Virus record (IMG/VR): IMGVR_UViG_3300021468_000001
Span: 10,683 to 74,682 of that record
Origin: a virus
Strand: one strand, 5' to 3'
DNA length: 64,000 nt
Shown here: positions 2,613 to 56,693 of the stretch, piece by piece
Numbering within the stretch: the first letter of the stretch is position 1
Layout: every line of letters begins with the position of its first letter
Program-made: the position numbers and the translations under genes
Notes under the pieces: model-generated
What the model saw: only the letters and a program-made list of their open reading frames with translations
What the model was told of the DNA's origin: nothing
Databases searched by the model: none

Positions 2613-2630
2613 TCCTCTCCCTAAACGAAA

Positions 2631-4271: not shown

Positions 4272-4305
4272 CCTCGACCTCCTTTACTATCTTCCTGCCG
4301 CATTC

Positions 4306-6750: not shown

Positions 6751-6761
6751 CACTCGGCCTC

Positions 6762-8207: not shown

Positions 8208-8485
8208 TACTCGGCCTCCTCTACATGTTCAAAGATAAGCATCCGCATCTTCCCAAGCGCTAGAGATATCACACCGAATGCCTGGTTTAGAAGCTTCCCG
8301 AGTTCTTTCCTTTCTTCCTCTGTTCCGTTAATCCAGGCGTCCTCTGCTTCAAGTGCCATAGCCATCGCTGCGTCAACTGCGGCCTTTATTTGGTGAAGTG
8401 CCCCGCTCAACATCTTATGATTGCTAGCCCTTGTAGAAGCTACTTGAACTCCATTTAACGCCTTCCGCGCCTCCTCAAGCCCCAT
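8207..8485 (-). CDS. Hypothetical protein (family D)
   Basis: Paralog of 5892-6176; ends EEAE. Confidence 0.8.
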   Translation of the reverse strand: MGLEEARKALNGVQVASTRASNHKMLSGALHQIKAAVDAAMAMALEAEDAWINGTEEERKELGKLLNQAFGVISLALGKMRMLIFEHVEEAE

Positions 8486-8497
8486 GTGCTGACCCTC

Positions 8498-8746
8498 TCA
8501 GAGCAAAAACCTATAGTAACCGCGCCCCACGCGCACGCAACGCCCAGCTTTCCGTAGGCTCTGTATCCCCCTGTGAAAGGCACGACGTGTAGTGTCCGAG
8601 TCTACTATCCCTTTCCGCTCCCGGTAGTCCCGCGTTATCCTGAATACTTGCGTTGCTGACAGCGCATAGCCCAAGTTGATTACGTGATACAGCCTTGCTT
8701 CATCGAGCGCCTTGAGTATGCTATCCGCCCACGATTCTTTTAACAT
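8498..8746 (-). CDS. Winged-helix DNA-binding protein (putative)
   Basis: Helix followed by LRKAGRCVRVGRGYYR wing. Confidence 0.55.
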   Translation of the reverse strand: MLKESWADSILKALDEARLYHVINLGYALSATQVFRITRDYRERKGIVDSDTTRRAFHRGIQSLRKAGRCVRVGRGYYRFLL

Positions 8747-8826
8747 TGCAGGACCTCCCACCTTGTTCCGGAGTGCATTATGCGATCCGCCAATTGCCGC
8801 TCTACCATTTCACTAGCACGGCTTTA

Positions 8827-9228
8827 CTATCTTTTCCACGCATCGAAAGCCTCTTGTTCCGCAATATACCATTCGTCCCCGCGGAAGTAAACCTTTCCGC
8901 CCCAACGAGCAACACGCAGTACTCCTACATGTTCTCGCGAGTCGCCTTCCACCCAAAAAGATCCTCTTACCAGGTTATCTTTTATATCCTCCGTTATCCT
9001 AAATTTGACAATCCGTTTCGGCTCTCCAAGTAAAGCAGTCATCTCACTTTCTGCGTTGGCTATTTCCGCAAAAGCAGAATCTATAAGGCGTGCTAGCCTT
9101 CGTGAGTCTCCTTCTACTTTGTCAGCTTCATTAAGCGCAACGCACGCGCGCTCAAGAAACTCAAGCGCCCGAAGCGCTCTCCATTCTGTTTCGGACTGGG
9201 CGCAATCAATATGATTCCTTCCTCGCAT
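8827..9228 (-). CDS. Hypothetical protein
   Basis: AGGAG RBS, operon context. Confidence 0.65.
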   Translation of the reverse strand: MRGRNHIDCAQSETEWRALRALEFLERACVALNEADKVEGDSRRLARLIDSAFAEIANAESEMTALLGEPKRIVKFRITEDIKDNLVRGSFWVEGDSREHVGVLRVARWGGKVYFRGDEWYIAEQEAFDAWKR

Positions 9229-9239
9229 TGCGAGATCTC

Positions 9240-9563
9240 CTACTGCATCCACGCAGGCACGAATACTCGCTCCGGGTCAAGCCCCAAAGCGCGGATATAC
9301 TTGTGTCCCGCTTTCGTGGCGTAAACTATGCCGTTCGGTGTCGCCGGGACAAGGTCGAAAACGGCTACAGGGCAGCACTTCTGCGGCGTGATAATCTCTG
9401 CGACTCCCACTTTAGCGCGCCCATCACGGTAGCCCGTGCCCTCGTTCGCATCGTAGAGCACGTAGCGCTTCCTGTCCACCTCGAACCCGACAAACGGGTT
9501 GAAAGCGTCCGCAGGCAACGCCTGCATAGCCTCTCCAACACTCGCATCACAAGACCATCCCAT
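9240..9563 (-). CDS. Hypothetical protein
   Basis: GAGGAGG RBS. Confidence 0.7.
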   Translation of the reverse strand: MGWSCDASVGEAMQALPADAFNPFVGFEVDRKRYVLYDANEGTGYRDGRAKVGVAEIITPQKCCPVAVFDLVPATPNGIVYATKAGHKYIRALGLDPERVFVPAWMQ

Positions 9564-16284: not shown

Positions 16285-16707
16285 GTGGGGCGAAAGGTAA
16301 GGGGGTTAGGGCGCGAGGTAGTTGAGGCGGTGATAGGGGGGATAGAGCGCGGGATAGAGGTAGGGGACATGGTACAGTTAGCGGTGCTGTGGGGCGAGTT
16401 ATGGGAGGCGGAGGTAAGGAGCATGGGGGCAGTGAGGGCGCGGATAGGGGAGGTGAGGGAGCGGTTGGAAGGGGAGGTAGTAAAGCGGTTAGGGGAGGCA
16501 GAAGAGGTAAAAGGGAGGATGTTAGAGGGGTGTGGGCGGATGATACAGGTGATGGCAGCGCGGCGGTATTTGATGGCGGAGCGTGCTGAGGCAGTAGAGC
16601 GTGGCGAGTGGAGGGCGGATGGGCGGATAAAGGAGTGGCGCAAGATAGTGGGGGAGGTAGGGCGGTGCGCGAAGAAGAAGAATGGGGGCAAGGCAAGTGA
16701 CGAATGA
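16285..16707 (+). CDS. terS: Probable terminase small subunit
   Basis: 140 aa helical protein directly upstream of and overlapping TerL; GGAGG RBS; positional assignment. Confidence 0.55.
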   Translation: MGRKVRGLGREVVEAVIGGIERGIEVGDMVQLAVLWGELWEAEVRSMGAVRARIGEVRERLEGEVVKRLGEAEEVKGRMLEGCGRMIQVMAARRYLMAERAEAVERGEWRADGRIKEWRKIVGEVGRCAKKKNGGKASDE

Positions 16708-19510
16708 GGACAAGTTACGGCGATTGGTAGGGTATCGGCCGGAGAGCAAGGAAGAGTTGTGGTTGTACTACAAAGCGGCGTTTGGGATGGGGCTGGTGCG
16801 AGAAAGTGTCTGTGAGGCACACAGTTCGCAATTAGATTTTGCGTGGGAGATGGTGCGAGGCGGTGCGGGGAACATAATAGCGCTGGCATGTCGGCATGGT
16901 GGGAAGACAAGCACGGCAGCGGCAAGTACGTTGGTGCGGGCAGTTACGCAGCCTGATCTTGATGGATTTGTAATGAGCGGATGTGTTGCACCGTGGCAAT
17001 TTTTGGTAGTGCAGGAAGGTGGGATGGTGTATTGCAAGCCGCTTGGTTGGGCAAAGGCAGGTGACGTGGTATGGACAAAAGAGGGATGGCGGAAGGTTAA
17101 AGCAGTAATGGTAAAGCCTGGGATAGAGGAGTTTTCGCGGCTTCGGACCGCGATAGGAGATATAACGACGACCGGCGACCATCTAATATACATAAAGGAT
17201 GCAATAGATGGGGACCGGAAGTGGGTTCCTGCGAAGGATATAGGGCGTTTGCAGGTGCCGCTAGTCCCGACGCGAGGGGCTGACGGCTCGAGATTGTTAC
17301 CATCGGATGAAAACTCCACGCTCGATCCATATCTGGCTGGAGTGATGGCAGGTCTTCCGGTAGACAAAAAGAGAAGTACAAGCGAAATGCTTTATGTCAG
17401 GTGGGGGTGGCGGGCTCCTGTGGGCATGAAGAGCAAAAAGGGATTGGCTTGGCGAGCTGAGCGCGAGAAGGCATCATGCTTGGGGGCACTAGGGTATGCG
17501 GCAAAGATACTGAAAGGCGTGGGGGTCTATCTTCACATATATGAATGTAGTGGCGAGAAGGAAGGGTCTTTTAGCACAACTGTACCGGTAGCTTCGATTC
17601 CTCGAGCGTATCTCGAACAGGACATTCGTTGGTATTGGCGGTACGATCGCGAGTGGCGGAGGCGCTTTCTGGAAGCATTTTTTGCGGTCGCATTTCGGAA
17701 AACTTCGTATGGGAAGGCGGGATATTTTCGGAGAAATGCTGGGGATGCTATATATTTTAGGGCAAGAGGATTGCCGCAAATCCCGGATCTTGTGAACGAA
17801 CCTCTTTGGCGGCAGGAGATTGCTAAGGCAAGCATAATCCTTTTGCTGAGTTTGGACGTTGCCGAGTTGTGGATGATCCCTACATGGCCGAAGTTCCCAA
17901 CATGGATGCCATATAGTAGTCAGTTTCCTGCATTGGTTTGGTTTAGGCCGGGGTCCTCAATACCGATAACAGATATGCCGTTTAGGTCAGCAGTTTTCAA
18001 GGATAGCACGCTTTACAATCCTGTTTTAATAGAACCGGCTCCTAGCGAGGTTTTTATAGGGAGGGCTGGGATAAAGGACAAGAGAAAGCGGGGCGATCCA
18101 TCGGTATTTTTTGATCTTGAGATTGAGGGCGCCGACAACTTTATGATTCTACCTGGTTGCATCGTTCACAATTCAAAACGGCAGGCACGAAGATTTTATC
18201 AGTTTTTTGAAAAGATGTCGCGGAAGTCTTGGTTTGAAGATGATTTTGATGGTAGGCCGGAGAAGGAGGAAGTGCGATTCAAAACCGGGAGTCGTGTAGA
18301 GATTCTTGCTACTTCGGAAACGTCAGCGCGATCTCCTCATGGGAACTTAATTATTGCCGATGAAGCAGATGCAATTCCATCAGGCGTCTATGAATCGTTG
18401 AATTTTGCGGTTGACCTAACAGACGAAATATCAGATAGGCGCGCCCTGTTCGTTATTACGTCAACGCAGCATAGGCTTGGTGGAAATATCTCGCGATTGC
18501 TCGAGAGATTAGAAGAACAGGGATCGAAGCATACTCGCGTTTTTCGATGGTGCATGAGGGAGGTGATTGCTCCATGCCCGCGCGATGCGGTTTGTGCGAA
18601 TTGCGACTTGTTCAATGATTGTGGAGGTGTAGCAAAAGAAAAGCAAGACGGGTTTCTAACGAGAGAAAAACTGGTTTCATTGAAAGAACGACTGGTTAGT
18701 AAGGATGCGTGGGATCGCGAGATGATGCTGAAGCCGCCTCGAGCAGGCGATACCGCTTGTCCTCTTTTCAGGGATGGATTTCCTTATGTCTATCGCTTCG
18801 ATGCGATGAAAACACTACCTTCTTTTCATGGCTGGGATTTTGGAGTTTCGACGGCGATTGTGTTTGCCAATTTTGATGAGAAGAAACAGCGAGTTTTTGT
18901 CTTTGATGAGCGGCTTATTCAGCATAAAGACCATCAGCACGTTGTTGATGTTGTGAATCGGATAGATGCGTATCACAGACTACCTAACCCGAAATCGTTT
19001 GGAGATCCGCATGGCGGGCAAGATATTCTTACATATGCACGTCTTGGGCATGTAATTTTGTCATATATGGGGCGGAGAAAACAGAGTAGACTAGATGTTC
19101 TAAACTGGTTTATGGAGTATCGGGACGACGGCAAGCCCGGGATTGCAATACATCCGCGGTGCAAACAGCTAAGGCATGAATTGATTGTTGCTACTAGGGG
19201 TGACCTTATTCAGTATGATCCGGTTTCAAAGAAGAGACTTGTAGTTGCAAAAGAAGGATTCCATATCCTAAATGCCCTAATATATCTTTTGGATGGGATT
19301 TATATGGGCCTTGATAGAAGCCGAGAGGTGTTGGCAAGAGAACGGAGAAAAGCGATAAATGCATCTTTGGGGACTGTTCCTCATCCTAATTGGGGAAAGG
19401 GCAAGAGAATTCATAATGAAGGTTCTCCGCCCTTTATCATCGAGCCTGGTGCCCCGCCTTCTCTTGATGGCATTGATGAAGGACTTGACCTTAATGCTGG
19501 CTTAGGTTAA
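16682..19510 (+). CDS. terL: Terminase large subunit with intein
   Basis: Walker A CRHGGKT, SxRQA (after splicing), Walker B IIADEAD, coupling motif ITST, nuclease GWDFG and GDP. Confidence 0.93.
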   Translation: MGARQVTNEDKLRRLVGYRPESKEELWLYYKAAFGMGLVRESVCEAHSSQLDFAWEMVRGGAGNIIALACRHGGKTSTAAASTLVRAVTQPDLDGFVMSGCVAPWQFLVVQEGGMVYCKPLGWAKAGDVVWTKEGWRKVKAVMVKPGIEEFSRLRTAIGDITTTGDHLIYIKDAIDGDRKWVPAKDIGRLQVPLVPTRGADGSRLLPSDENSTLDPYLAGVMAGLPVDKKRSTSEMLYVRWGWRAPVGMKSKKGLAWRAEREKASCLGALGYAAKILKGVGVYLHIYECSGEKEGSFSTTVPVASIPRAYLEQDIRWYWRYDREWRRRFLEAFFAVAFRKTSYGKAGYFRRNAGDAIYFRARGLPQIPDLVNEPLWRQEIAKASIILLLSLDVAELWMIPTWPKFPTWMPYSSQFPALVWFRPGSSIPITDMPFRSAVFKDSTLYNPVLIEPAPSEVFIGRAGIKDKRKRGDPSVFFDLEIEGADNFMILPGCIVHNSKRQARRFYQFFEKMSRKSWFEDDFDGRPEKEEVRFKTGSRVEILATSETSARSPHGNLIIADEADAIPSGVYESLNFAVDLTDEISDRRALFVITSTQHRLGGNISRLLERLEEQGSKHTRVFRWCMREVIAPCPRDAVCANCDLFNDCGGVAKEKQDGFLTREKLVSLKERLVSKDAWDREMMLKPPRAGDTACPLFRDGFPYVYRFDAMKTLPSFHGWDFGVSTAIVFANFDEKKQRVFVFDERLIQHKDHQHVVDVVNRIDAYHRLPNPKSFGDPHGGQDILTYARLGHVILSYMGRRKQSRLDVLNWFMEYRDDGKPGIAIHPRCKQLRHELIVATRGDLIQYDPVSKKRLVVAKEGFHILNALIYLLDGIYMGLDRSREVLARERRKAINASLGTVPHPNWGKGKRIHNEGSPPFIIEPGAPPSLDGIDEGLDLNAGLG
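16982..18172 (+). mobile_element. Intein (397 aa) with degenerate LAGLIDADG-like region
   Basis: Starts C101 (SG/CVAP); block B TTTGDHLIY; block F FFDLEIEGADNF; ends IVHN followed by +1 Ser. Confidence 0.92.
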
Positions 19511-19542: not shown

Positions 19543-21090
19543 ATGCCGAGTCGAAAAGTGTTTCCGCCTCAACTCCTTCCGGAAAAGTCTAAGGGAGTTC
19601 TCAAAAGCATAGAGGATGGAACTGATGAAAGAAAAAAAGAGCGCCTTTTGCAAGACTATCAGAAGATGCGAGACTGTCCTACCATTAGGTTCTGTTTTTT
19701 TCTTATTTCCTTGCCGATTCGTAGAGCAAGAATTACGTATCAGCATCCAGATGCCGAAATACGAGAGTTTGTGAACAGGAACCTCGCAATTATTAGGCGA
19801 AACCTTACTGAGCATATCCTTGCTGGTCTTGAATTTGGGTTCGCACCATTCGAGAAACGATTTCAGGTAATTGACTCGCGAGTTTTTTACAAAGAGTTTT
19901 TGCCGCTTCGTCCCTGGCATGTGAAAGTCTTGACAGATGGAGTATCTTTCAAAGGAATGAGGCTTTTTAAGCAGCCGATTTATCATGGTGAAGGCGGTTC
20001 ATTTGTTGAGATTCCGCCGAGAAAAAGCTTTATCTATACCCATCAATTCAGATTCATGGACTTTCGAGGCGAATCACTCTACCGTTCAGCGCGGATTCCT
20101 TGGCTTCTTTGGAAAGAAGTGGTACGACTTCACGCGCACACCATGCAGGACCATGCACTTCCGCCGCTTGAGGCGAGAGCGCCTGATGCTGTTCTTACCA
20201 TAAACTATGATGATAGGGTTGAACAAATAACTGCTCGCGAGTTGATGATAAGGGTAGCAGAGGCGATTCGGTCGAGGTCGTCCTATTTGCTGCCTCCCGA
20301 CGAGGATTATGGGATTGAGGCGAAACAAACTGCGCGACAGTGGGACTATGAGAAAGATTACGACCTTTGTGAGCGGATGATTGCTCAATCTTTATTGACG
20401 CCGAGAGACCTTTTTAGGGAAGGTGGCGGATCCTATGCAAAAGCGTACGTCCAGTCGCATTGGTTTGCTGGGATTGTAGATGCTATAGTCGAGGAAATTA
20501 TATCTTTCGTGTTCTCATTTGCGATAGTCCCCATCGTCCGCTATAACTTTGCGAAATACCAGGATCCCGCAATTCATGATTTTGGCAGGCTTTCGTATGA
20601 AAGCTTGTCACTGAAAGACATTGACTTTCTTCAGAAACTTGCGTTGACGATGGTAAAAGAAGGGTTTGCAGATGAAGTACCGGAACCGGCAGAAATTTTG
20701 AAGCGCCTTCACGTACCAATCAAAACCCGCCCGGGCAAGCCGTTGCTTTCGATGCCAATATCAAAGGCATCGCTTTTCGAGAGTCTGAGAAAAGAACTAT
20801 TTGCAGAGATTGCCCGAACGAAAGAAGAGCTTGGGTTCTCCGAATACATTTCTGTTCCACCTCAAGTGATGGCATTCTTGAAAAATTTTGCCGGGAAAAC
20901 AATGGACCTCGTTGAGGAAAGTACGGATCGCGATGCCGTCTTGTCGGATGCGTTGCTTAAGGCGCATTCACTTGCTCGTGCTTTGACGTATACTGCTCTT
21001 GGTTCTAAGGTCTGGAGGGTTGATACTCATGACGATTCTGGATCTATTGAAAGTCCCGCCAGAGAAATACTCGCCTCAAAAGATAAGTGA
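19543..21090 (+). CDS. Portal protein (Mu gp29/DUF935-like)
   Basis: Follows TerL; LEFGFAPFEK, GESLYRSA..PW..K, GSYAKA..VQ, IVRYNF motifs. Confidence 0.88.
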   Translation: MPSRKVFPPQLLPEKSKGVLKSIEDGTDERKKERLLQDYQKMRDCPTIRFCFFLISLPIRRARITYQHPDAEIREFVNRNLAIIRRNLTEHILAGLEFGFAPFEKRFQVIDSRVFYKEFLPLRPWHVKVLTDGVSFKGMRLFKQPIYHGEGGSFVEIPPRKSFIYTHQFRFMDFRGESLYRSARIPWLLWKEVVRLHAHTMQDHALPPLEARAPDAVLTINYDDRVEQITARELMIRVAEAIRSRSSYLLPPDEDYGIEAKQTARQWDYEKDYDLCERMIAQSLLTPRDLFREGGGSYAKAYVQSHWFAGIVDAIVEEIISFVFSFAIVPIVRYNFAKYQDPAIHDFGRLSYESLSLKDIDFLQKLALTMVKEGFADEVPEPAEILKRLHVPIKTRPGKPLLSMPISKASLFESLRKELFAEIARTKEELGFSEYISVPPQVMAFLKNFAGKTMDLVEESTDRDAVLSDALLKAHSLARALTYTALGSKVWRVDTHDDSGSIESPAREILASKDK

Positions 21091-22813
21091 CAGCGAACTC
21101 AAATATGATTTGACGTTGGCTGTGTCTTGGGGTACGAAAGGCGCTCCGGACATAAGACAGAAGGCTCAGAAATACGCGCTCAAGATCATCCCTGAACTTC
21201 TGAAACGAGGGAAAGTCACATTTCATTTTGAGTCCTGGAAAGAAGCGCCGCGCAAATTTTTGGTCGAAATCTTCAAGCGCCTTTTTACTTCAGGGATCTA
21301 TCTTGTTCCCCCGCATGGCGAGATGATCTACAAGGGCCGAAAGACGGCAATTGTTAAGGTCAAACCAGATCAAAGACTCCCGGAAACGTTTTCTGTTCTC
21401 GTGAGCGGGAAACACGCTTTCGGGTTCATACGAGCGAAGGAATCTCGTGAGATTACCGTCGCCGAGTTCCAACGGCTCAAGAAGTATCACCGCATCACCG
21501 AAGATGAGCGAAACTCGTGGTGGCCGAACAAGGAGAAATTCCAGTACTATGAGATTCGCGATTTTTTGCCTTTTGAAAAGCCTCATCCGGTTGAGGTCGT
21601 TCATGGGATCCAGACGAGGATAAAGAAAGTGAGTTTCGACGATGCGTCGTGGGATGATTTCGATGAAGCAGGGGTTGTTTTTCTGGAGAGGCGGAGTCGA
21701 ATTTACAAGCCATTTAACTTCTATATGGGATCACATTTCCAGTATGGACTTCTGAAAAGCCTACTGCGGAAGCAAGACTGGGACCTCTACTGTGAGCCGT
21801 TCTGTGGTTCGGCCAGCGTTTTTTGGGGTCTCCGCCGCGACATTGGAAATGATTTTAAGGCAATCCTTTCCGATTTACACCCGACTGTCATTTTCATATT
21901 TCGCTTTCTGAAAGGGTTGACGCCTGAACAAGCAAAGCGCGTCCGGCAGAAGAACTGCAAGTTCAGTGTTGCTCGATACAAAGAATTCAGGAAATCGAAA
22001 TTTCAAGATCCTGTCGATGAGTTCTTCAGGGCGATCTATGTAGCGCATTTTTCATTCGGCGGTTTGAGAGTTGTTCCTGAAAAGGCTTCTTTGATAGTTG
22101 CCGAAAACAGGATATCTACTTCTTTAGCAATAAAGAGTTGCGAAAGAAGGCTCAGGTCAACGATCGAAAGGCTTGAATATTTTCGAGACGCGTTGAAAAA
22201 CACCACTGTTTTACAGGATGATGCTCTCGTCGTGATCGAAAAGTTCAATTCGAGCAAAACATTTTTCTACATCGACCCGCCATATCAGAAATGGTCTATG
22301 AAGGATGAAGGGGGGAAAGATGGTTTGATTGCAAGGATCCCGGCCTTCAATCGCGTTTTGAAATCGATCAAGGGCCGGTTCATCATGGAGACTACAGGGG
22401 AAAGTCCAATTCTACATGGGATCAAAGGCTTTCATAGAAAGAAAATCGTGCGCAAATCGCCACTCAAATCAGAGAAGAATCTTTCGTTTGTATTTCTTTC
22501 TAACTTCCCCATCGATCCGAAGCTTTCTGTTGTCTTGGATGATGAACCGGAAGATCTTGATGCTTTGCTCGAACGGCTTTCCGAATTGAGTCCGTTCGAG
22601 CTGATTTGCATTCACGGATGGTTGCATGGCGAGGCTGATCAAGAAGATCCAATACCGCAGCATATTGCGATGGCGCATCTTCTTCTTGTTTCCAGAATGA
22701 AACAGATAGGAATGGAACACCGCTGGGAATCGTTTCTTGATGAAGAAAGCGAGATGCTTGCCGCGAAGGCACAGATGATTACTGGCGCTGATTTGGAAGG
22801 GGAGGCTTACTGA
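21029..22813 (+). CDS. Multidomain protein: ASCH-like domain + D12/Dam-class N6-adenine DNA methyltransferase + His-rich helical tail
   Basis: GIYLVPPHGEMIYKGRKTAIVK (ASCH-like); YCEPFCGSASVF, LSDL, FFYIDPPY; RBS GGAGG before ATG at 21029. Confidence 0.82.
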   Translation: MTILDLLKVPPEKYSPQKISDSELKYDLTLAVSWGTKGAPDIRQKAQKYALKIIPELLKRGKVTFHFESWKEAPRKFLVEIFKRLFTSGIYLVPPHGEMIYKGRKTAIVKVKPDQRLPETFSVLVSGKHAFGFIRAKESREITVAEFQRLKKYHRITEDERNSWWPNKEKFQYYEIRDFLPFEKPHPVEVVHGIQTRIKKVSFDDASWDDFDEAGVVFLERRSRIYKPFNFYMGSHFQYGLLKSLLRKQDWDLYCEPFCGSASVFWGLRRDIGNDFKAILSDLHPTVIFIFRFLKGLTPEQAKRVRQKNCKFSVARYKEFRKSKFQDPVDEFFRAIYVAHFSFGGLRVVPEKASLIVAENRISTSLAIKSCERRLRSTIERLEYFRDALKNTTVLQDDALVVIEKFNSSKTFFYIDPPYQKWSMKDEGGKDGLIARIPAFNRVLKSIKGRFIMETTGESPILHGIKGFHRKKIVRKSPLKSEKNLSFVFLSNFPIDPKLSVVLDDEPEDLDALLERLSELSPFELICIHGWLHGEADQEDPIPQHIAMAHLLLVSRMKQIGMEHRWESFLDEESEMLAAKAQMITGADLEGEAY

Positions 22814-25680
22814 TGGGGTCCGACCAAAAGAAAATTCATGCTTCGGAGTTCTTTGCGAGACTTCCTTTTTATAAGATTGTATTCAAAGACTATCTGAAGT
22901 TGGTCGGGTCGGTGGCCATTTCCGGGGCGGGGAACGATCTTGACGTTTTGATTGACGGAGAGCCGTTGCGCGCTGTTGAGTTTAATTTGAAACGAATGTT
23001 CCCGCCATCTATCGCAGAACGCCTCCATGTTTTTCACGATCAAGGGCCTTTCACATCTTATATCCCCCTTGCAGATCTGGTTTTGCAATTCAAACCGCCT
23101 ATGGTTGAGTCGCTTTCTGTTGGCAAGTCGCTTGAACCGGAGGGTAGAAAATCTGCTCGTGAAGACAAGGTTGTTCCTTTTCGGTTTTTCTTTCCGCAGA
23201 AGACTAGAGCAGGATACCACAAGCGTGAGTTTTTTACGGTCGAAGATGCACTGGAAGTTGCTGAGTCAAAATGGTACCCGTGGGTCGGAGAAGAGAAACT
23301 AGATGGAATGCTGTGGGAGGTTCATAAAGTAGGAGACCGGGTTGAGGTCTTTTCTGAAGATGGACGGGAGGTTAATATCAACCAGGCTGGTCCTTTGATA
23401 AACGAGATTCGCTCGCAGCCAGAAGATTTTGTTGCGGTTGGAGAATTGGAGACTTGGCTTGCTCCTGATGCGGCAAAAAAGTTTGGTGAAGAGGTAACTT
23501 CGCAAAAAATGTTCAAGGGGAAGGTTCATGTGGGACGAGCAAAAACTACAGGATACATCCACTCAAGTAAATTTGATCGTGAGTTTGCCGAAGGGCTAAG
23601 GCTTACCTTTCATACTCTTGTTTGGTGGGGGCGCGACGGAAAAGATGATTTCCACAAGAAGCCAGAGATTGAAAGGCTGAAAATCCTTGATAGAATTGTA
23701 AAAGAGGGAGAGCACATCCGAAAGGTTTATTGGCGACTTCTAAAACGCCCAAAAGATGTAAGGCGGTTTTGGGTGGGTGTGTTGCGCGAGCGGGGTTATC
23801 TCGAAGGAATCATGCTGAAGCCGGCAATGGAACGATACTATTTGAATCCTAACCAGGGTCACTGGGTAAAGGTTAAAAAACTATACGAATTGAAAGTTCG
23901 TATCCTTGCCCGTGAACGCGGGAAGACAAAAGAGGGTGTCCCCCTGAACGTTTATCGTTTTGCCTGTGCAATCGAGGGCAAGAAGGGGAATCCGGTTTGG
24001 ATCGGGTGGACATACCATAGGAGGTTCAAAAAAGTTCCGAAGGTTGGTGATGTAATTGAAGTTCGCTTCCAGAATCTTAACAAGTACACCGATCCCAAAA
24101 CAGGGAAAATTTGGATGAACTGGTGGTGCCCGGTTGTTGTGTCCGATGAGCCGGAAAGTGCACAGCCAGACTCCGTCGTAATTGCCGAAAGAATGGTTGC
24201 GGCAAGCAAGGGCGACGTTTCGACGAAGCGCCCACCCAAGGATGTGAGAGATATAATGCGGGGGGTTGGTGTCGAATTCCAAATGACATCTGATGAGGTA
24301 CTCGAAATTTTGGAAAGGACGCCGCCCCTCGATTCTACAAACCTTGCAAAAGTTAGTAAGAATCCCGCGATGCCAAAAGAGATGGTGGAGGCAATAGAAA
24401 AAGCGCGCTCGTTTTCGGTTGACAAGCAGGTTCAGGTTGCAAAATCTAGAAATTACGGAAAGATTCCGCCGCACTTTGGAGTCTTTCAACTCCATTTCAG
24501 AGGTAAAAGTTTGCACATTGACTTTAGGTTTCTCCTGCCAGATCGGGCCAGTTGGTCAGGAAAGACAATCCTTAACCAGATTGAGGGCGTTCCAAGCGAG
24601 CCCGTTACGGCGATTGAAGAAGCGAAACGTTTTGCCAATATGATTCTAAAGAAAAAAGCCGAAGTGTCGAAATTTTATCCGGGGATGCCATCTGGCCAGG
24701 GAGTTGTTGTTATTCCAAAGTTTGAAGGGAAGTCTTCGTTTTTGGAATGGCTGGTTTTAGGTGCAGCGAAAGTAGATTGGCCGCACGCAGGCGCAACAAA
24801 AGAGTTTCCTGGCGTTTTCTACCCGCTAGATTTTGGATGGCATATGCAGACTGTAGATAAGCCTTGGTTTGAAGAGCATTGGATTTTCTTTAAGCACTTT
24901 CGGGGTAGATTGGTATTTCGTGCGCTACCGGCGAGCAAGAAGTATAAAGGAAGGATCGGGAAAGCGCCGATCTTTTGGCGAGCGCACTTTGCCAATCCTG
25001 AATCCCCGCCGTATGTCTTTTCGCGCTCTTTCTTTGATGACCCAGAAGATTGGGTACCCGTTGACTCTGCGCTCCCGCCTCATTGGGAGGCCGTTGTTCC
25101 GAAAGACCTCCGTTGGTGGGAACAATCGTACTCAAAAAAGAAAAGGCTGTCGATGATTGTCGAAGCGCATAATGCATTGATCGAGCAGGGATACTTAAAG
25201 GGAAGGCCTATTTCACTATCTTCTAGTCTTGAGCGTGCAAAGTGGGTGCTCCATGAAATTTCATGGAAAGGGCCTATTCATGTGCGAGGGGAGTGGATAA
25301 GTACATATTACTTGCGTCTTTTTGGCCCGAATGGCATCGAGACGTTTGCGGGAAGCGACAACCCCTTACTGGCTGCAAAGGGAACGAAAATCCCAATGCG
25401 GAAACTTCCGGCTGATGAGGTACCCTTACCGCCACAGGGGAAGGATCAGGATGATTGGCTTCGGTTTGAAGGGAAAATTCCCCCGAAGAGGGCGGACAAC
25501 CCAAATTTGGAAATTGAAGCTGACTGCTCTATCATCGAGTCTGGGGTTGCCGAAATAGAGCGTGATGCTTCACTTCGACGAATTCTTTTAAGACTTGAAG
25601 GAGAGAACTTAAAAGGATACTATACTCTACAGCGAGAAGGGAAAGGTTCGCCGCTCTTCTCGTTTGAGAAAGTCAAGTAG
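22813..25680 (+). CDS. Multidomain protein: pol-beta-type nucleotidyltransferase + ATP-dependent DNA ligase (with OB) + LigD 3'-phosphoesterase-like domain(s)
   Basis: VGS..NDLDVLI; EEKLDG, VGELE, EGIMLK, WVKVK; QLHFRGKSLHIDFRF; C-terminal LEGENLKGYYTL. Confidence 0.82.
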   Translation: MGSDQKKIHASEFFARLPFYKIVFKDYLKLVGSVAISGAGNDLDVLIDGEPLRAVEFNLKRMFPPSIAERLHVFHDQGPFTSYIPLADLVLQFKPPMVESLSVGKSLEPEGRKSAREDKVVPFRFFFPQKTRAGYHKREFFTVEDALEVAESKWYPWVGEEKLDGMLWEVHKVGDRVEVFSEDGREVNINQAGPLINEIRSQPEDFVAVGELETWLAPDAAKKFGEEVTSQKMFKGKVHVGRAKTTGYIHSSKFDREFAEGLRLTFHTLVWWGRDGKDDFHKKPEIERLKILDRIVKEGEHIRKVYWRLLKRPKDVRRFWVGVLRERGYLEGIMLKPAMERYYLNPNQGHWVKVKKLYELKVRILARERGKTKEGVPLNVYRFACAIEGKKGNPVWIGWTYHRRFKKVPKVGDVIEVRFQNLNKYTDPKTGKIWMNWWCPVVVSDEPESAQPDSVVIAERMVAASKGDVSTKRPPKDVRDIMRGVGVEFQMTSDEVLEILERTPPLDSTNLAKVSKNPAMPKEMVEAIEKARSFSVDKQVQVAKSRNYGKIPPHFGVFQLHFRGKSLHIDFRFLLPDRASWSGKTILNQIEGVPSEPVTAIEEAKRFANMILKKKAEVSKFYPGMPSGQGVVVIPKFEGKSSFLEWLVLGAAKVDWPHAGATKEFPGVFYPLDFGWHMQTVDKPWFEEHWIFFKHFRGRLVFRALPASKKYKGRIGKAPIFWRAHFANPESPPYVFSRSFFDDPEDWVPVDSALPPHWEAVVPKDLRWWEQSYSKKKRLSMIVEAHNALIEQGYLKGRPISLSSSLERAKWVLHEISWKGPIHVRGEWISTYYLRLFGPNGIETFAGSDNPLLAAKGTKIPMRKLPADEVPLPPQGKDQDDWLRFEGKIPPKRADNPNLEIEADCSIIESGVAEIERDASLRRILLRLEGENLKGYYTLQREGKGSPLFSFEKVK

Positions 25681-25696: not shown

Positions 25697-27361
25697 ATGT
25701 CGGATCTGGACCTGGTCTTGAACCTTGGCGAGAGCGTGGAGTTTGAGGAAGTTGAGGGCGGGGCGCTTGTTGTAAAAAGGGTCCCGGCTCTCATTGAGGG
25801 TACGCACAAAGGACACGAGTTTACACCAGATATTATCGAAGAAACAGCCAAAAATATGCAGGATGTTACCGATGTGCAGTTGTTCAAGTCTCACGAAGAA
25901 GCGGAACAGAACCTAGTTGGTGGGGCAGTCAATTTCACTTTCGGTGAAAGTAATGGCAAGAAGGCGGTGCTTGCTGATCTTGTGATTGGCGATACCGATA
26001 CCGCCACTCTCGTTAAAAACCTCAAGAATTCTGGACTGAAAAACCTGGCAATCTCTCCGAGAGTTGACGTTTCTGAAAACAAAATCCTCCATGTTGCCCT
26101 TGTTTTGGAGCCTGCACAGGGTGAAGATGTTAGGCTAAAGGCTGACAAGGAGCCCGATGAAGAAGATCCCGAAGAAAAACCGGATGAAGAGCCGAAACAG
26201 AAAGAGAAGAAAATAGAGGAGAAGAAAGACGGTTCGTGGCCTGCATACACCCCTTATAAAACGTGGTGGGAAAATGTCAAGGCTATAATCTCTAAGACGC
26301 AGAACCCGGAGGAGGCGATAAAGAAACTGAAAGAGCTTATCGAGAAAGCAGAAAAGGCTTGCCGGGGGAAAAACCAAGAGCGTCCATATCCGAACGTAAA
26401 AGCGGCGATGTCTTCGGGCGTTCAGGTTGTGGAAATGTTACCTTCGCCGTCAGTGAACTTTCAGCAGGCAACTGACAGTATCTATCGGGTCTTCCTTTTT
26501 GAAGAAGGTAAATATGTTTTTGGTGAAGACCGGTACCTCGTGGCGAACGCCAAAACATTCAAAGACTGGAAAGAAAGCCTTAGCTTGCTCAAGAAGGTTC
26601 CTGTTTTTCTTGGCCATCCGAAGAAGGGTGAGGAAAATGCTCCGGCCGTTGTTGGGTGGTTACTTGATGTCGATACAGAGGGCAAAAAGTGTTACGGGGT
26701 GATGGAAATTGTCGAAAAAGAAGTTGCCGATGCGATTGATAAAGGCAAGATTCTCGGAGTTTCAGTAGGGACAATGCCGCTGCGCCGAACCGAAGATGGT
26801 AACTTTATTTCGAATGCCCTCGACCATGTTGCCCTAACCGTTGATCCTGTTCTGAGGCAAACATTGGAGGAGGGATTTGAGAAGTTGGAACGCTATGTTG
26901 CTTCTGAGGAAGAGAAGGAGTATGTCGAGGGGTCGCTGGAAAGAATTGTTGATGAAGAAGAGGTAAGCCGTCTCAGAAGGGAAATCGAGGAGCAAAAACA
27001 GAAACTTAGCGAGGTAGTGAAGCGCCTTATGGCAACTGAAAATGAAAAGGCGAAGAGGGACCGAGAAGCAATAGATGAGCTTTTCAATAAGGCCATTGCT
27101 GAAGGAAGGATAACTCCGGCAGAAGTGACCTTGCGAAAGCCGGTTTACTACCAACTCCTTAACCTCAGGCGTCCCGTAAAAGTCGGGGATGAGGAAATCT
27201 CAGTTGTGGAGATGCTTCAAAGGGAGTTGGCGGTTCGCAAATCGGAATCGCTTGAGCCGGTCAACCAGTCGCAGGAAGCAAAGGCGTTCAATATCGAGAG
27301 CCTAATAGGGCTTCCACCGGATGAGTTCGTTTCGAAATTGAGGGATGTTTTCGGGGATTAA
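25697..27361 (+). CDS. Prohead protease/scaffold with two tandem Mu gpI-like protease domains
   Basis: Repeat 1 KSHE..LVG..ISP..ILHVALVLEPA; repeat 2 LGHP..VVGW..GVSVG..LDHVALTVDPV; coiled-coil AIAEGRITPAE scaffold tail. Confidence 0.82.
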   Translation: MSDLDLVLNLGESVEFEEVEGGALVVKRVPALIEGTHKGHEFTPDIIEETAKNMQDVTDVQLFKSHEEAEQNLVGGAVNFTFGESNGKKAVLADLVIGDTDTATLVKNLKNSGLKNLAISPRVDVSENKILHVALVLEPAQGEDVRLKADKEPDEEDPEEKPDEEPKQKEKKIEEKKDGSWPAYTPYKTWWENVKAIISKTQNPEEAIKKLKELIEKAEKACRGKNQERPYPNVKAAMSSGVQVVEMLPSPSVNFQQATDSIYRVFLFEEGKYVFGEDRYLVANAKTFKDWKESLSLLKKVPVFLGHPKKGEENAPAVVGWLLDVDTEGKKCYGVMEIVEKEVADAIDKGKILGVSVGTMPLRRTEDGNFISNALDHVALTVDPVLRQTLEEGFEKLERYVASEEEKEYVEGSLERIVDEEEVSRLRREIEEQKQKLSEVVKRLMATENEKAKRDREAIDELFNKAIAEGRITPAEVTLRKPVYYQLLNLRRPVKVGDEEISVVEMLQRELAVRKSESLEPVNQSQEAKAFNIESLIGLPPDEFVSKLRDVFGD

Positions 27362-27376
27362 AAAGGAGGAACCGAG

Positions 27377-28465
27377 ATGATTCAGGTTGCTAAGGATGCT
27401 TTTATCGTAAGACCGTTTGAGGACCTTCTGAGTGTAGCAAATTTCGGTGAGGAAGTTATGGCGCAGTTTGCAAACTACACCCAGGCTATGAAAAAGGCAG
27501 ACCTCACCGACAAGCTGATTCAGCCGCTCTTTTCGGCGCGGACTATTCAGGATCTTCAAACGACATCTGCGCTTCTTGACCTAGCGCGAAAGATGGTCAA
27601 GATTAGCTGGAAGGGGCAGGGAGACCCCCTTCAGGTTCCCTATATCGACTATCTGAGTGGATCCGGTGTTTCTGAGGGAACCTCAACTGAGGGTTCTGAG
27701 GAAAAACTTTCGGTGACAATGAAGTCGGTGGCTCTTGCCGAAAAGGCCCATTCAACGGCCTGGACGAGACATGCAGGGCGGCTGGCGCGATACTCTGTGC
27801 TGGAAGCGTCTCGTGAGGCGCTCAAAGATTGGGCAGTTCGAAAGATAGAGGCTGATATTCGTACCTCGCTTCAGACTTCGATCACTCAAATCATACGTCC
27901 GAATGATAAAGGTTCTGATGAGGCAATGACCGCTACCGATGTTCTGGACACCGAGACGATTCGTCAGGCGCGGTGGATTCTTTGGAAGAAGAGGGCGGCC
28001 AGTTTCTCGCCTAAGGACGTGGATACCGAGGGTAAGATGAAAAAGTCGATGGGGACGTACGTTCTCATTTGCCCGGGCGAGTTGCTTAAAGACCTCGAGG
28101 ATGATACCGATTTTAAGAATGCTCAGGAGAAAGCTGCCGACCTTGCGCGTGGATTCTCGCCGTGGGAAGGCGATATTTATCTCTATAAGGGCGTTCTTAT
28201 CGTGAAGGGCGATCCGAGAATCTGGACGACTGAGACCATTTCGGCCGGGTACTCGTACAAGATGGCTCGTGCCCTAATGCTCGGGTCCGACGCTTTTGTC
28301 TTAGGCCTTGGCCAGCCGGAAGGCGAAAACTTCCTGACCGTGACACCCGAGGAAAGCGATGGTGGCCGTTTGCAGCGGCTGGTTCTGTCCATCATATACG
28401 GAGTCGGGGTTATCCGGGCGACTTCGGGTGTTTGGATTCATGCGGCGACGCAAGACCTAATCTAA
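27377..28465 (+). CDS. Major capsid protein (HK97 fold, N4-gp56-like)
   Basis: 362 aa after protease; strong RBS; G-D-x-x-x-VP, YVLI, DLEDD..F, G-x-x-Y-KGV, ALMLGSDA; terminator follows. Confidence 0.88.
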   Translation: MIQVAKDAFIVRPFEDLLSVANFGEEVMAQFANYTQAMKKADLTDKLIQPLFSARTIQDLQTTSALLDLARKMVKISWKGQGDPLQVPYIDYLSGSGVSEGTSTEGSEEKLSVTMKSVALAEKAHSTAWTRHAGRLARYSVLEASREALKDWAVRKIEADIRTSLQTSITQIIRPNDKGSDEAMTATDVLDTETIRQARWILWKKRAASFSPKDVDTEGKMKKSMGTYVLICPGELLKDLEDDTDFKNAQEKAADLARGFSPWEGDIYLYKGVLIVKGDPRIWTTETISAGYSYKMARALMLGSDAFVLGLGQPEGENFLTVTPEESDGGRLQRLVLSIIYGVGVIRATSGVWIHAATQDLI

Positions 28466-28486: not shown

Positions 28487-28523
28487 GCGAGGAGGGGAGG
28501 ATTTCCTCCCCTTCTCTTTTTTT
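28487..28523 (+). terminator. Rho-independent terminator after capsid gene
   Basis: GAGGGGAGG/CCTCCCCTT stem plus T-run. Confidence 0.85.
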
Positions 28524-28526
28524 CGC

Positions 28527-28555
28527 TTGACGGCGAAGTCCCAATCTGCTATCTT
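28527..28555 (+). promoter_or_regulatory. sigma70-type promoter
   Basis: TTGACG-17nt-TATCTT with extended -10 TG. Confidence 0.75.
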
Positions 28556-28561: not shown

Positions 28562-31432
28562 ATGGACTTTGTGGAGGTTCTAGTCTTGGAGCTTTTCGTC
28601 GTAGAAAATATAAGCCCGGTTGCTCACACCTTGAAAGACTTTCAAGGGAAGCGAAAAACGATTGGATTCTCTCAGAAAGCTATAGTTTCGGCTGAAGTAG
28701 CATCTCTTTTAAGGCGGACTGGTCAGTTCAAGATTCATGGAGTAGATTGGGATAAGATTGTTTCGGTTCTTGAGAAAGACATATCAGAGCCGACAGCAAT
28801 CCAAAAACTCCAGAAATTTCGCCCGCCAACCGCTGGAAGTTTTGTCTTTGCAGTATTTCCAGAGGAAGAAGATATATCAATCCAAAGGTGGTTCTTTTCA
28901 CAACTCGTTCGTCTATCGAGGGGCAATGATTCGCTTTGTGTTTACGCAAGAGACCTGCCAAAATTTGCCAGATTTTACTTTGGAACTCACAATATCGGGT
29001 GGATTTTTACTGAGAGTTTCTTTGGCAAGGTCGATGTGGTCATTGGGTTTTCTCAAAGCAATATAAGGAAATATTGTAGCAAATTTGGCGCGAGGGGGCT
29101 TCAAATATCGCCATCCCTGCTTCCAGATTGGGAAACTTCCGACCAGTTTCTTAATTCTCGAAGTAGCGGTAATAAAAACACGTTCCTTCTTTTGAGCAAG
29201 GATGTCCCGCCAAAATGGGTACAGGGATTTTCGGATTCTTTGAGAATCGAACACGTGAAGCCGGATGATGCCGAATGGATTTTTGATGCTGAAAGGGCAA
29301 GGCTTCTGTCTAGGGCTTTAATCTTTTTGAATCTTGAGAAGACGACCCTGCCATTCTATGAAAGAGAGGCAAAGCTGTGCGGGGCCTATGTTGTTTCAGA
29401 TGCAAATCTGTTTTCGGATATTGGTCCCGATGTGGCGCGCAATGAAAAGCCGCACGACTTGGTTGAGAAAGCGAGAACTATCCGCCCAGCTAGGCCGATC
29501 TCTCTCTCTTCGATTACCACACTCGACTTGCTTCCAAAACGATCTACCCCTTCTCGAACCAAGGAGTATGACGTTCTAATTGTTCATTCGCCTTCATTGT
29601 CTGGGCGTTCCGGGGCAGATAAAGCAACTATTGCGCTGAAAAAGCACTTGAGTAAAGAATGGAATGTAGGGCTGATGATTGCATCAACAGGGGAAAAATC
29701 CGGCCCGCTTGCCGAGATAGCAGATTTTTGGGCACCGCTTTCTAAAATCGTATCCGATCATAATAAGTTTCCAGTGGCAAGTCTGTACATTGTGTCAGAT
29801 TCTCTTATTCCTGCTGTCTCGGAAGTAGTGCCGAAATCGTCTATTCTTGGATATTTGCATTACTTGGGCGACCTGGCTGACGACAAAAACCGCGCCATCG
29901 AAACGCTTAAGGCAGGCTTCCTTCAAGGGGTGAAGATTCTTTCTCCATCCCGCTGTCTTGCTGAGAAGCTAAGAGAGATGTACTCGCTTGATGTTGAACA
30001 CTGCGTGCCGAAGTATGACTTCCCGCAAAAAAAGTCGCCTCCGCCTTCGGGAAAGAATAGAGATATGGTTTTTGTCCCGGTTCTTTATAACTCGGCGAAA
30101 GATCTTCAATTCTTACACGAGATTGCAGAGTTGGTTCCTGAGGCTAACTTTGTTGTCGGAGATTGTCGGGCTCCGAAGTCGGCTATCAAGGCAAGAAATG
30201 TGAAGGTCCAATATTTTGAAAACGTACAAAATGCCTTTTCAAGGGCAAAGATAGTTCTTGTATTTAGTACAATTTCTACAACCCTTTCTATTTCTGCATG
30301 GGAGGCTTTAGCGGCCGGGATCCCGGTAATCGCCGAGGATAAAGTCCCATTTAAGGATCTCTTCGACCGATTTCGGCTTCCGAGAAACCCGGATATATGG
30401 GCGTCAGTAATTCGGAAGAATCTTAATCTCGAAAGTTATGCGTGGGGTGGAACGCGAAGGGCATGTAGAAGTGATTTCATGTCTTATATGGAAAAGGCAG
30501 ACCGCTGGGACATATTGGTTTCTGAGGCAATTTCAAGGCGGGAAGTCGGCTTCAGTGTTCGTCCGTCGCCTTATGCTGGCGTTCAGAATGCGCTGGAGTG
30601 CATGAAACATGTTATTGTAAATGAGAACTCTGACATCGTAGTCGCATCTGTTTTGGACCATGATGCCCCTCATGGGTGTATAGGGTTTATAGCGTCATCC
30701 CTATCGCAACTCGCACTAGATGGACAGAATGACTTGATTGGCGAGTGTGCATCTTCATTGTCGCGCGGGAGGTTTTCTGCAATCATCACATTCGATACTG
30801 CAATTGCACGTCTTTTGAATATGATCGTCGGAGATGAATTTGCGTTTGCACTGCCCGTTCCAATCAAGCCGATTAGAGGAATTGCGCGCCTTAAACCGCT
30901 AAAAACATCCATTCTTTTCAGGTCAAACGCACCAAGAAAAGATTTCTTTTTCAACTTGCTTTTGGCGGCTGAGGCGGGGGTCCAGGCCGTTGAGGTTTCA
31001 GATTCAGTTCCGCCGGAAGCATCTGCGATTGCCCAACGAATGGGGGTCATCCTTCGATTTCACCCGCTTTACTCGGGTGATGCCTATAGGAGTTTTTTGT
31101 CAGAAGTCAAGGTTGGCTTGCAGGTCACGCTATCGGAGTCTTTCAATTATACTGCCTTCGATCATTTTCAGGTAGGTACGCCTTGTCTTGTCTCCGAGCA
31201 GACAAGATGTATTTTCGACTTGCCCAAAAGATGGAGATGGCTGATAATCAACCAAAGAGATCTTTTAGGCGCAGTTGATGTTTTCAGGGATGCAGCTAAA
31301 ATGACAGAAAGGGATAGACTTTCTCTTGCAAAGGATGCTCGGAAGGTGGCTGATGCGCTAAATATACGATTTAAGGCTGCTTTTTCTAGAGTGATGAGGT
31401 TGGTTCAGCGTAGAGCAAAAATATTAGCGTGA
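28562..31432 (+). CDS. Large multidomain GT-B glycosyltransferase (about 3 GT modules)
   Basis: EREAKLCGAYVVSD; SGADKA..LSISAWEALAAGIPVI; RKDF..SESFNYTAFDHFQVGTPCLVS. Confidence 0.78.
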   Translation: MDFVEVLVLELFVVENISPVAHTLKDFQGKRKTIGFSQKAIVSAEVASLLRRTGQFKIHGVDWDKIVSVLEKDISEPTAIQKLQKFRPPTAGSFVFAVFPEEEDISIQRWFFSQLVRLSRGNDSLCVYARDLPKFARFYFGTHNIGWIFTESFFGKVDVVIGFSQSNIRKYCSKFGARGLQISPSLLPDWETSDQFLNSRSSGNKNTFLLLSKDVPPKWVQGFSDSLRIEHVKPDDAEWIFDAERARLLSRALIFLNLEKTTLPFYEREAKLCGAYVVSDANLFSDIGPDVARNEKPHDLVEKARTIRPARPISLSSITTLDLLPKRSTPSRTKEYDVLIVHSPSLSGRSGADKATIALKKHLSKEWNVGLMIASTGEKSGPLAEIADFWAPLSKIVSDHNKFPVASLYIVSDSLIPAVSEVVPKSSILGYLHYLGDLADDKNRAIETLKAGFLQGVKILSPSRCLAEKLREMYSLDVEHCVPKYDFPQKKSPPPSGKNRDMVFVPVLYNSAKDLQFLHEIAELVPEANFVVGDCRAPKSAIKARNVKVQYFENVQNAFSRAKIVLVFSTISTTLSISAWEALAAGIPVIAEDKVPFKDLFDRFRLPRNPDIWASVIRKNLNLESYAWGGTRRACRSDFMSYMEKADRWDILVSEAISRREVGFSVRPSPYAGVQNALECMKHVIVNENSDIVVASVLDHDAPHGCIGFIASSLSQLALDGQNDLIGECASSLSRGRFSAIITFDTAIARLLNMIVGDEFAFALPVPIKPIRGIARLKPLKTSILFRSNAPRKDFFFNLLLAAEAGVQAVEVSDSVPPEASAIAQRMGVILRFHPLYSGDAYRSFLSEVKVGLQVTLSESFNYTAFDHFQVGTPCLVSEQTRCIFDLPKRWRWLIINQRDLLGAVDVFRDAAKMTERDRLSLAKDARKVADALNIRFKAAFSRVMRLVQRRAKILA

Positions 31433-56628: not shown

Positions 56629-56664
56629 GGGAGCCCCTCCCCTACGGTTGGACGAATCAAATTG

Positions 56665-56693
56665 ATTGTAGTGCGTTCTCAAAGGAACGTCAA
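56665..56693 (-). promoter_or_regulatory. sigma70-type promoter of primase-helicase
   Basis: TTGACG-17nt-TACAAT. Confidence 0.8.

Follow-up and report, generated by a model that had tools for sequence, protein, structure and literature searches.

A methylase–ligase–phosphoesterase gene pair in the head operon of an uncultured tailed virus: candidate head-loaded protection and repair proteins

Two coupled genes, located between the genes for a Mu-like portal and a prohead protease, were analysed in a 64,000-nucleotide window of viral DNA (bases 10683–74682 of the complete 74,682-bp IMG/VR record IMGVR_UViG_3300021468_000001; all coordinates below are those of the window). Gene 1 encodes an ASCH domain fused to a D12-class adenine methyltransferase, and gene 2 a small nucleotidyltransferase-like (NTase-like) domain, an ATP-dependent DNA ligase and two tandem phosphoesterase (PE) folds of the type known from LigD. 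The pair is a split version of a widespread, unnamed multi-enzyme 'polyvalent' head-module family of uncultured tailed viruses, in which the same modules are fused within one polypeptide and in some members end in a prohead protease. From the sequence evidence, loading of both proteins into the capsid is likely; the favoured reading as a whole, namely packaged and ejected proteins that methylate and repair DNA, is in our estimate evenly poised between right and wrong. Domain identities, catalytic motifs, the operon, the fusions within the family and the synteny with head genes were established by computation; that the proteins enter the capsid in their split form, are ejected into the host and act on DNA is what we infer.

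Domain composition of the two proteins

The two genes and their modules were located as follows, with the type of evidence in brackets.

21029–22813, + strand: gene 1, 594 amino acids (aa) from the ATG at 21029; the open reading frame (ORF) opens at 20999, and a GGAGGG ribosome-binding site stands before ATG 21029
21029–21283, + strand: N-terminal helical module, residues 1–85 from ATG 21029 (AlphaFold2 (AF2) helices H3–8, H21–37, H40–60 and H72–85; predicted local distance difference test (pLDDT) >90)
21284–21643, + strand: ASCH (PUA-like) domain, residues ~86–205, containing GRKTAIVK (Foldseek probability 1.0; VIA Z 10.4)
21752–22447, + strand: D12-class N6-adenine DNA methyltransferase (PF02086, 1e-11, 45.5 bits against a cut-off of 22; phrog_56, phrog_13242)
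22499–22810, + strand: C-terminal His-rich helical module 'P1_C', the last 104 residues (domain map of relatives; no Pfam match at E ≤ 10)
22813–25680, + strand: gene 2, 955 aa; its ATG overlaps the TGA of gene 1 as TGATG
22813–23097, + strand: minimal pol-beta/MNT-type NTase-like domain, residues 1–95 (motif G32-S33...D42-x-D44, then GPFT at 78–81)
23140–24162, + strand: ATP-dependent DNA ligase, adenylation and OB domains, residues 110–450 (PF01068, 2.1e-11, 44.3 bits against 26.2)
24163–24462, + strand: linker, residues 451–550, kept only in close relatives (no family assigned)
24463–24927, + strand: PE1, LigD-type 3'-phosphoesterase domain with an insertion, residues 551–705 (hhalign against PE2; motif)
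24928–25233, + strand: Trp/Pro-rich connector between the PE folds, residues 706–807 (W722, P733, Y734, P749 and W769, 84–93% conserved)
25234–25677, + strand: PE2, complete LigD PE beta-barrel, residues 808–955 (VIA Z 16.2 to 3p43)

The tandem PE folds of gene 2 were modelled over residues 551–955 with AF2, using an alignment of 59 relatives (A1), at a pLDDT of 93.9. The six top Foldseek matches of the model were all solved LigD 3'-phosphoesterase structures (probability 1.0), and these superpose onto PE2 (model residues 258–405, corresponding to protein residues 808–955) with VIA Z scores of 16.2–11.9: Z 16.2 to 3p43, with a root-mean-square deviation (rmsd) of 2.1 Å over 121 of 124 aa, Z 15.6 to 3p4h and Z 14.5 to 3n9b. 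The PE2 profile matched 3p43 at 5e-11. PE2 lacks the metal-binding His/His/Asp/Arg residues, its conserved positions being structural only (glycines, prolines, hydrophobics), and it is probably non-catalytic. PE1, homologous to PE2 by hhalign profile–profile comparison (96.5%, E 8e-10, 123 columns), carries the motif QLHFRGKSLHIDFR, in which Q559, H561, R563, H568, D570 and R572 are kept; H561, R563, H568, D570 and R572 are nearly invariant, and the conservation of H561, H568, D570 and R572 among relatives was ~78–80%, a figure depressed by partial matches. In a homolog with 30% identity over 95% of the PE region (P0156), the PE1 equivalent covers the entire Pfam LigD_N profile at gathering score (31.2 bits), as the only homolog to reach it; the whole P0156 protein matches the archaeal PE structures 3p4h (E 2e-5) and 3p43 (1e-4), mainly via its second domain. 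Sequence and model together thus describe two tandem PE folds, of which PE1 looks active and PE2 degenerate. The connector between them was modelled with high pLDDT and belongs to no known family.

The ligase of gene 2 has motifs I–V intact by sequence: K162 (I), E211 (III), E331–K336 (IV) and K353/K355 (V) are present, the motif residues being invariant in close relatives and 81–91% conserved in 123 relatives (K162 91%, E211 90%). Solved ligases of archaea and eukaryotes were matched by the family profile at 1e-34 over a stretch that comprises the adenylation and OB domains; the gene 2 protein lacks their N-terminal DNA-binding domain. At its N-terminus, the motif VGS33...D42-L-D44-VLI fits the pattern hG[GS]x9-13Dh[DE]h with a downstream third carboxylate, and conservation in 87 relatives was 94% for G32, 94% for D42, 91% for D44 and 65% for D76. 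In the ESM Atlas, the segment lies near viral 'nucleotidyltransferase' clusters (feature score 0.93), its low-confidence Atlas model gave template-modelling (TM) scores of 0.46–0.61 to NTP_transf_2/Polbeta clusters (PF01909/PF18765), and its first structural neighbour was a prohead-protease cluster carrying such a domain. Residues 1–95 are rated a probable, though not a proven, pol-beta-type NTase.

In gene 1, Pfam and PHROGs detected nothing besides the D12 N6-adenine methyltransferase, whose motif I (EPFCGS) lies at 21794–21811 and motif IV (DPPY) at 22274–22285 (residues 266–271 and 426–429, respectively, in ORF numbering from 20999). Residues 1–244 were folded with AF2 using an alignment of 39 relatives (A7), which gave a helical module followed by a beta-barrel at a mean pLDDT of 85, exceeding 90 up to residue ~200. 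Foldseek returned nine ASCH chains for this model at probability 1.0 and E ≤ 3e-5, among them TTHA0113, ZmASCH (Zymomonas), YqfB, EOLA1 and TRIP4. In the Foldseek-independent VIA search, the top 10 matches were all ASCH/PUA-like (Z 10.4–6.5; the three best 10.4, 9.2 and 8.6), with the best superposition on 5guq (rmsd 3.0 over 118 aa). The Pfam ASCH family (PF04266) had no match in the gene 1 protein and matched 1 of 30 scanned relatives, at E 0.005. The modelled barrel is recognisable as ASCH from its fold and not from a Pfam score. The helical module before it gave only generic helical matches in the VIA structure search and is conserved N-terminally in many fused relatives.

Pfam searches at E ≤ 10 with the isolated NTase, P1_C, linker, connector, N-terminal helical and PE1 segments yielded no meaningful match, and single-sequence PDB searches with the gene 1 and gene 2 proteins nothing useful. 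In fused relatives, the conserved P1_C nearly always directly precedes the NTase-like domain, and on this sequence evidence the two modules may form a single functional unit that extends over both window proteins. P1_C was also considered as a mini-HEPN partner of the NTase, which was rejected for want of profile support.

An earlier note on this DNA had described most of these parts, and all motifs it quoted were found in place (EPFCGS, DPPY, VGSVAISGAGNDLDVLI, EEKLDG, VGELE, EGIMLK, WVKVKK and QLHFRGKSLHIDFR). Its fusion of an ASCH-like domain to a Dam/D12 methylase, its ATP-dependent ligase with OB fold and its LigD phosphoesterase-like motif all agree with the scores given above. The degenerate second PE copy that it suspected at the C-terminus proved to be real and is the best LigD PE match of the protein. 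Its minimal pol-beta NTase is upheld by the motif and the 91–94% conservation, but not by profile searches against Pfam or the PDB.

Head operon, fused relatives and their genomic context

The genes surrounding the pair are tightly packed on the + strand in the order TerL–portal–gene 1–gene 2–protease–major capsid protein, the protease gene starting 16 nt downstream of gene 2.

16682–19510, + strand: large terminase TerL, first gene of the operon, 942 aa (PHROG terminase matches at residues 494–887 only)
19543–21090, + strand: Mu-like portal (PF06074, 1.7e-22; phrog_113, 2.8e-28)
25697–27361, + strand: prohead protease/scaffold, a separate gene, 554 aa (phrog_976, 1.5e-9)
27377–28465, + strand: major capsid protein (PF13252, 6e-12; phrog_334)
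28489–28516, + strand: intrinsic-terminator-like hairpin, the strongest of the region (12-bp stem with 8 GC pairs, then T7)

As predicted from the sequence, the block from terminase to capsid is one late head operon that closes at the 28489–28516 terminator; genes 1 and 2 are assigned to it because their starts are coupled and the sole strong terminator follows the capsid gene. The position and late timing proposed earlier for the two coupled genes agree with these coordinates, the TGATG overlap and the terminator.

An exhaustive phmmer search over 1.84 billion cluster representatives yielded 727 relatives with E ≤ 1e-3, of which 109 reached E ≤ 1e-30; lengths of 1,200–2,600 aa were common among them. 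When the seven modules of genes 1 and 2 were placed on 154 retrieved relatives, they reappeared fused within one polypeptide in variable order, relatives with many modules having a length of 1.8–2.6 thousand aa; one of 1811 aa and 42% identity (P0008) holds all seven. Since the boundary between genes 1 and 2 falls exactly at the P1_C/NTase joint of the relatives, the window pair was taken as a split form. Sequencing runs labelled as hydrothermal-vent metagenomes contain the stretch, whole in two and a third to half of it in four more, and contigs from other hydrothermal-vent samples showed 0 base differences and 0 indels against the parts they cover. The gene 1/gene 2 junction is not spanned by the contigs from independent samples, and for the split itself the probable source assembly is the sole support.

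Of the 154 retrieved relatives, 20 carry an XkdF/S78_2 prohead protease, in every case as the very last, C-terminal domain. One relative (P0041) carries Tad3, the type I Thoeris inhibitor (PF25185, 8e-32), at residues 70–175, N-terminal to ASCH–NTase–ligase–PE; published work demonstrated that Tad3 inhibits ThsB, the Thoeris sensor (PMC13728456). Further domains found in relatives comprise metallo-beta-lactamase, inteins, 2H phosphoesterase and PNK 3'-phosphatase.

Homologs are linked to head genes, which the earlier note had put forward as a check. At 15 IMG/VR loci with relatives, PHROG scans assigned the upstream ORFs mainly to portal, terminase and minor-head/head-morphogenesis families, and the downstream ORFs to head-maturation protease and major head proteins. 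One locus (L007) has the order of the window, i.e. portal, polyvalent gene, protease and capsid, and in another (L002) an HK97-type capsid gene comes one ORF after a fused MTase–NTase–PE–protease gene. Two further loci contain the protease-fused relative P0007, and MuF-like 'minor head protein' ORFs adjoin the ligase gene in relatives. By this gene order, even very divergent viruses keep the gene between portal and protease. Searches for viral-contig loci with P0002 or P0003 found none, and a GTDB genome scan (pattern search, alignment A4) returned no relative, a scan of limited sensitivity that says little on prophages.

Some relatives showed features of their own. Inteins (LAGLIDADG/Hint matches) interrupt the ligase genes of several. 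P0148 (2643 aa) has five C5-cytosine methylase stretches and other methyltransferase profiles, followed by NTase, ligase and a C-terminal XkdF-type protease. P0008, P0009, P0011 and P0073 have a metallo-beta-lactamase-fold (MBL) domain alongside the D12 methylase, and in P0009 the methylase (418–602) appears inserted between the N-terminal (341–388) and C-terminal (692–803) MBL parts. In the archaeal virus ANMV-1 (L005, KP703175), the protein annotated as 'ATP-dependent DNA ligase' has the architecture NTase–ligase–PE1; its neighbours in the region 1913–9368 are a 'MutT-like hydrolase' and a 1168-aa hypothetical protein, and the terminase lies ~4 kb off on the opposite strand, so that head linkage is less obvious there.

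Capsid loading and alternative roles

Under the favoured reading, both proteins would be made late from the terminase-to-capsid operon and built into the procapsid beside portal and protease, as the relatives would do via covalent fusion to the protease. At the next infection, they would leave the capsid with the DNA. The ASCH–Dam protein would then methylate adenines of the incoming genome and so blunt restriction; PE1, as a Mn-type phosphoesterase, would clean damaged 3' ends (3'-phosphate or 3'-ribonucleotide), and the ligase would reseal nicks or breaks. The PE2 fold may serve as a nucleic-acid-binding or scaffolding module, and the small NTase may have an accessory role. Packaging is likely on this evidence; injection, DNA rather than RNA as substrate and any polymerase-like role of the 95-residue NTase are more conjectural.

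Head loading was preferred because of the protease fusions, the portal-proximal slot, the missing MuF domain in the genome and the counter-defence domains in relatives. The prohead protease works inside the procapsid, and whatever is fused to it therefore enters the procapsid. The protease fusions (20 of 154) and the Tad3 fusion (one relative) strengthen the case, at the level of sequence, beyond what the earlier note had offered.

Several points weigh against this reading. Neither window protein is fused to the protease, no capsid-targeting signal was identified in either, and proteins of 594 and 955 residues would need unfolding or cleavage to cross the tail. No RNA run is listed among the sequencing runs that contain the stretch. 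The gene 2 ligase and the gene 1 D12 methylase are the sole ligase and the sole D12 methylase of the complete genome. Concerning the domains, the NTase segment had no Pfam match at E ≤ 10 and no PDB profile match, the window protein scored 13 bits for LigD_N against a cut-off of 31.1, and a counterpart of LigD His84 was not assignable in PE1 from the sequence. Some relatives add 2H phosphoesterase, PNK 3'-phosphatase, or weak RNA_ligase or capping-enzyme profile matches, and the characterised top ASCH matches ZmASCH and YqfB act on RNA or nucleosides. Counterparts are scarce as well: the ANMV-1 ligase was the sole match among 50,697 GenBank phage records, and the BFVD viral structure library gave one credible match, unnamed. 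With almost no counterpart in either collection, no cultured model is at hand.

A less likely but serious alternative is that the proteins stay unpackaged and act late within the producing cell, where ligase and PE would seal nicks and heal ends in replicated concatemers for packaging and the methylase would mark progeny DNA or a packaging site, the location in the head operon reflecting timing. T4 requires ligase for packageable DNA, and pac cleavage of P1 is under control of Dam methylation. With these precedents, the sole-ligase and sole-methylase status noted above and the co-transcription with terminase and portal predicted from the operon layout speak for such a role. Set against it are the fusion of the same domains in relatives to the prohead protease, the fusion of one relative to Tad3, which is directed against host immunity, the conservation of the portal–protease position in very divergent viruses, and the resemblance of the giant multi-methylase versions to counter-defence proteins.

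An RNA-repair kit, packaged or not, appears unlikely. Here the PE would heal RNA ends with 2',3'-cyclic or 3'-phosphates, the ligase would rejoin tRNA or mRNA that anticodon nucleases or HEPN RNases of the host had cleaved, and ASCH and NTase would bind or modify RNA. T4 Pnkp with Rnl1 and bacterial Pnkp/Hen1 repair RNA with a 5'-kinase, phosphatases of the HD or calcineurin type and RNA ligases, and are not known as products of head operons; shared with the window pair is the logic of a 3'-end-healing phosphoesterase and a ligase reversing nuclease damage in virus–host conflict. The additional domains of relatives and the ASCH matches listed above point in this direction, as does the pairing of MNT-type NTases with HEPN RNases in toxin–antitoxin systems (structural neighbours). 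However, the ligase is of the ATP-dependent DNA type with an OB domain, and among solved structures it is nearest to the replicative DNA ligases of archaea and eukaryotes (1e-34). Moreover, the domain that accompanies it in the family is a methylase of adenine or cytosine in DNA, the LigD PE enzymes act on DNA primer–template ends (titles of 3n9b, 3p43 and 2lj6), and the window proteins have no 5'-kinase.

That the two proteins serve chiefly as structure or scaffold of the head, their enzyme folds being non-catalytic relics, is highly improbable: PE2 is conserved despite its lost catalytic residues and the NTase-like fold adjoins prohead proteases also without other enzymes, but the catalytic residues of ligase, PE1 and NTase are conserved over >80 divergent relatives and the methylase retains DPPY.

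The packaged protect-and-repair reading was compared with known systems. For polyvalent proteins, a survey predicted that they are carried in the virion and become active as infection begins; an assemblin-like peptidase, where they have one, is always C-terminal (Iyer, Burroughs, Anand, de Souza and Aravind 2017; PMC5512222). Shared with them are the disparate domains in one polypeptide (ASCH and D12 in gene 1; NTase-like, ligase, PE1 and PE2 in gene 2), the context of virion genes in a portal–terminase virus, and DNA methylases and pol-beta NTases among the domains. In contrast, the window proteins contain no peptidase (zincin MPTase or assemblin-like), the protease being the next gene and of another family, and the unit is divided into two coupled genes. 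LigD-type PE, ASCH and DNA ligase go unmentioned in the text of that survey, which names RNA ligases alone, and these as not associated (PMC5512222); since it mentions neither LigD nor DNA ligase, the core of ligase and tandem PE is a cargo that the survey leaves undescribed. Nothing relevant came up in literature searches on ligases associated with virions, on head-module ligase–PE proteins or on LigD PE in phage capsids. The pair thus fits the polyvalent-protein class, with a cargo that was not found described.

With bacterial LigD and the stand-alone archaeal PE proteins (3n9b, 3n9d, 2lj6, 3p43, 3p4h and 5dmp), the gene 2 protein shares an ATP-dependent ligase and a barrel of the 3'-phosphoesterase fold in one polypeptide, the Q-x-H...H-x-D-x-R metal/phosphate motif in PE1 and the close superposition of PE2 (Z 16.2, rmsd 2.1 Å). 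It differs in having no archaeo-eukaryotic primase (AEP) primase-polymerase, for which Pfam found none in the two proteins or in 62 scanned relatives, and a pol-beta-type mini-NTase where LigD has its polymerase. Further differences are the tandem duplication of the PE with one degenerate copy, a His-to-His spacing in PE1 longer by one residue (H561 to H568), the LigD_N score below cut-off, and the setting in a viral head operon rather than in cellular non-homologous end joining; Ku (PF02735) had no match across the complete viral genome. The gene 2 protein is accordingly not LigD, and is by analogy akin to the PE and ligase half of it.

Among the P1 Dar proteins, DarB carries a methyltransferase domain. 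The Dar proteins (DarA, DarB, Hdf and others) are head-linked antirestriction proteins for which packaging has been shown experimentally (PMC9024508, PMC12810830). Common to both systems are large proteins linked to head morphogenesis, and Dar guards the incoming genome from restriction. Modules for ligation, phosphoesterase activity or an ASCH fold are absent from Dar, the comparison showed no relationship in sequence, and packaging in the window system is a prediction. MuF proteins are packaged and can carry effector domains (PMC5512222). The slot directly after the portal gene is the one occupied by MuF/SPP1 gp7 minor head proteins, whereas a MuF domain (PF04233) was detected neither in the two window proteins nor in the complete genome (E ≤ 0.1).

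The broader interpretation of the earlier note was in part retained. Its MuF slot corresponds to the place of the genes next to the portal, and the domains, the placement in the head operon and the conserved link to head genes all stand. Its description as Ku-independent and LigD-analogous holds for Ku, but with no AEP polymerase present the likeness to LigD stays an analogy. Circularisation of the genome by the ligase, which it had also proposed, is not favoured; direct terminal repeats are present on the complete 74.7-kb record, and ligation of cohesive ends is therefore not obviously needed.

A wider proposal is held tentatively. The capsid would carry a ready-made kit comprising a DNA methylase, a 3'-end cleaner of the LigD type and a (pre-adenylated) DNA ligase, which would enter the cell along with the DNA and reverse nicks or breaks from restriction enzymes, CRISPR or other nucleases before viral expression. 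The kit would be anchored to the head via the prohead protease or a portal-proximal module and would occur in hundreds of lineages of uncultured viruses of bacteria and archaea. The virion-delivered counter-defences known so far (P1 Dar, T4 internal proteins, MuF-linked effectors) act on host immunity by blocking, masking or degrading it. A ligase packaged together with an end-healing phosphoesterase would, if real, undo damage instead, which is a different principle of counter-defence. The family is large (727 representatives) and almost absent from cultured phages and the searched literature. Its compact architectures, a ligase without DNA-binding domain and a tandem active/degenerate PE pair, are new and possibly of enzymological and biotechnological interest, and the prohead-protease fusions offer an experimental handle on cargo loading into HK97-type capsids.

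Neighbouring genes and other content of the genome

TerL carries a weak Pfam Intein_splicing match at residues 462–497 (E 0.004) and, by its sequence, probably holds an intein or other insertion. In the 554-aa prohead protease, the phrog_976 match is confined to residues 298–379, the N-terminal half and an acidic linker being without family. PF14550, representing the XkdF/S78_2 type, had no match anywhere in the genome, and no sequence similarity of the window protease to gene 2 was found. A promoter-like site, TTGACG-17-TATCTT, follows the strong capsid-gene terminator, the two together lying within window 28489–28555, and beyond them lies a gene for a 956-aa protein with GT4-type glycosyltransferase matches (28562–31432).

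The replication module (53926–56739, − strand) encodes a primase-helicase of the bacterial DnaG zinc-finger/Toprim type. Elsewhere, the genome encodes a PD-(D/E)XK nuclease, a GT9 heptosyltransferase, radical S-adenosylmethionine (SAM)/B12 proteins and SAM methyltransferases. The DnaG-type primase-helicase and the other gene content hint, as far as sequence can, at a bacterial rather than an archaeal host.

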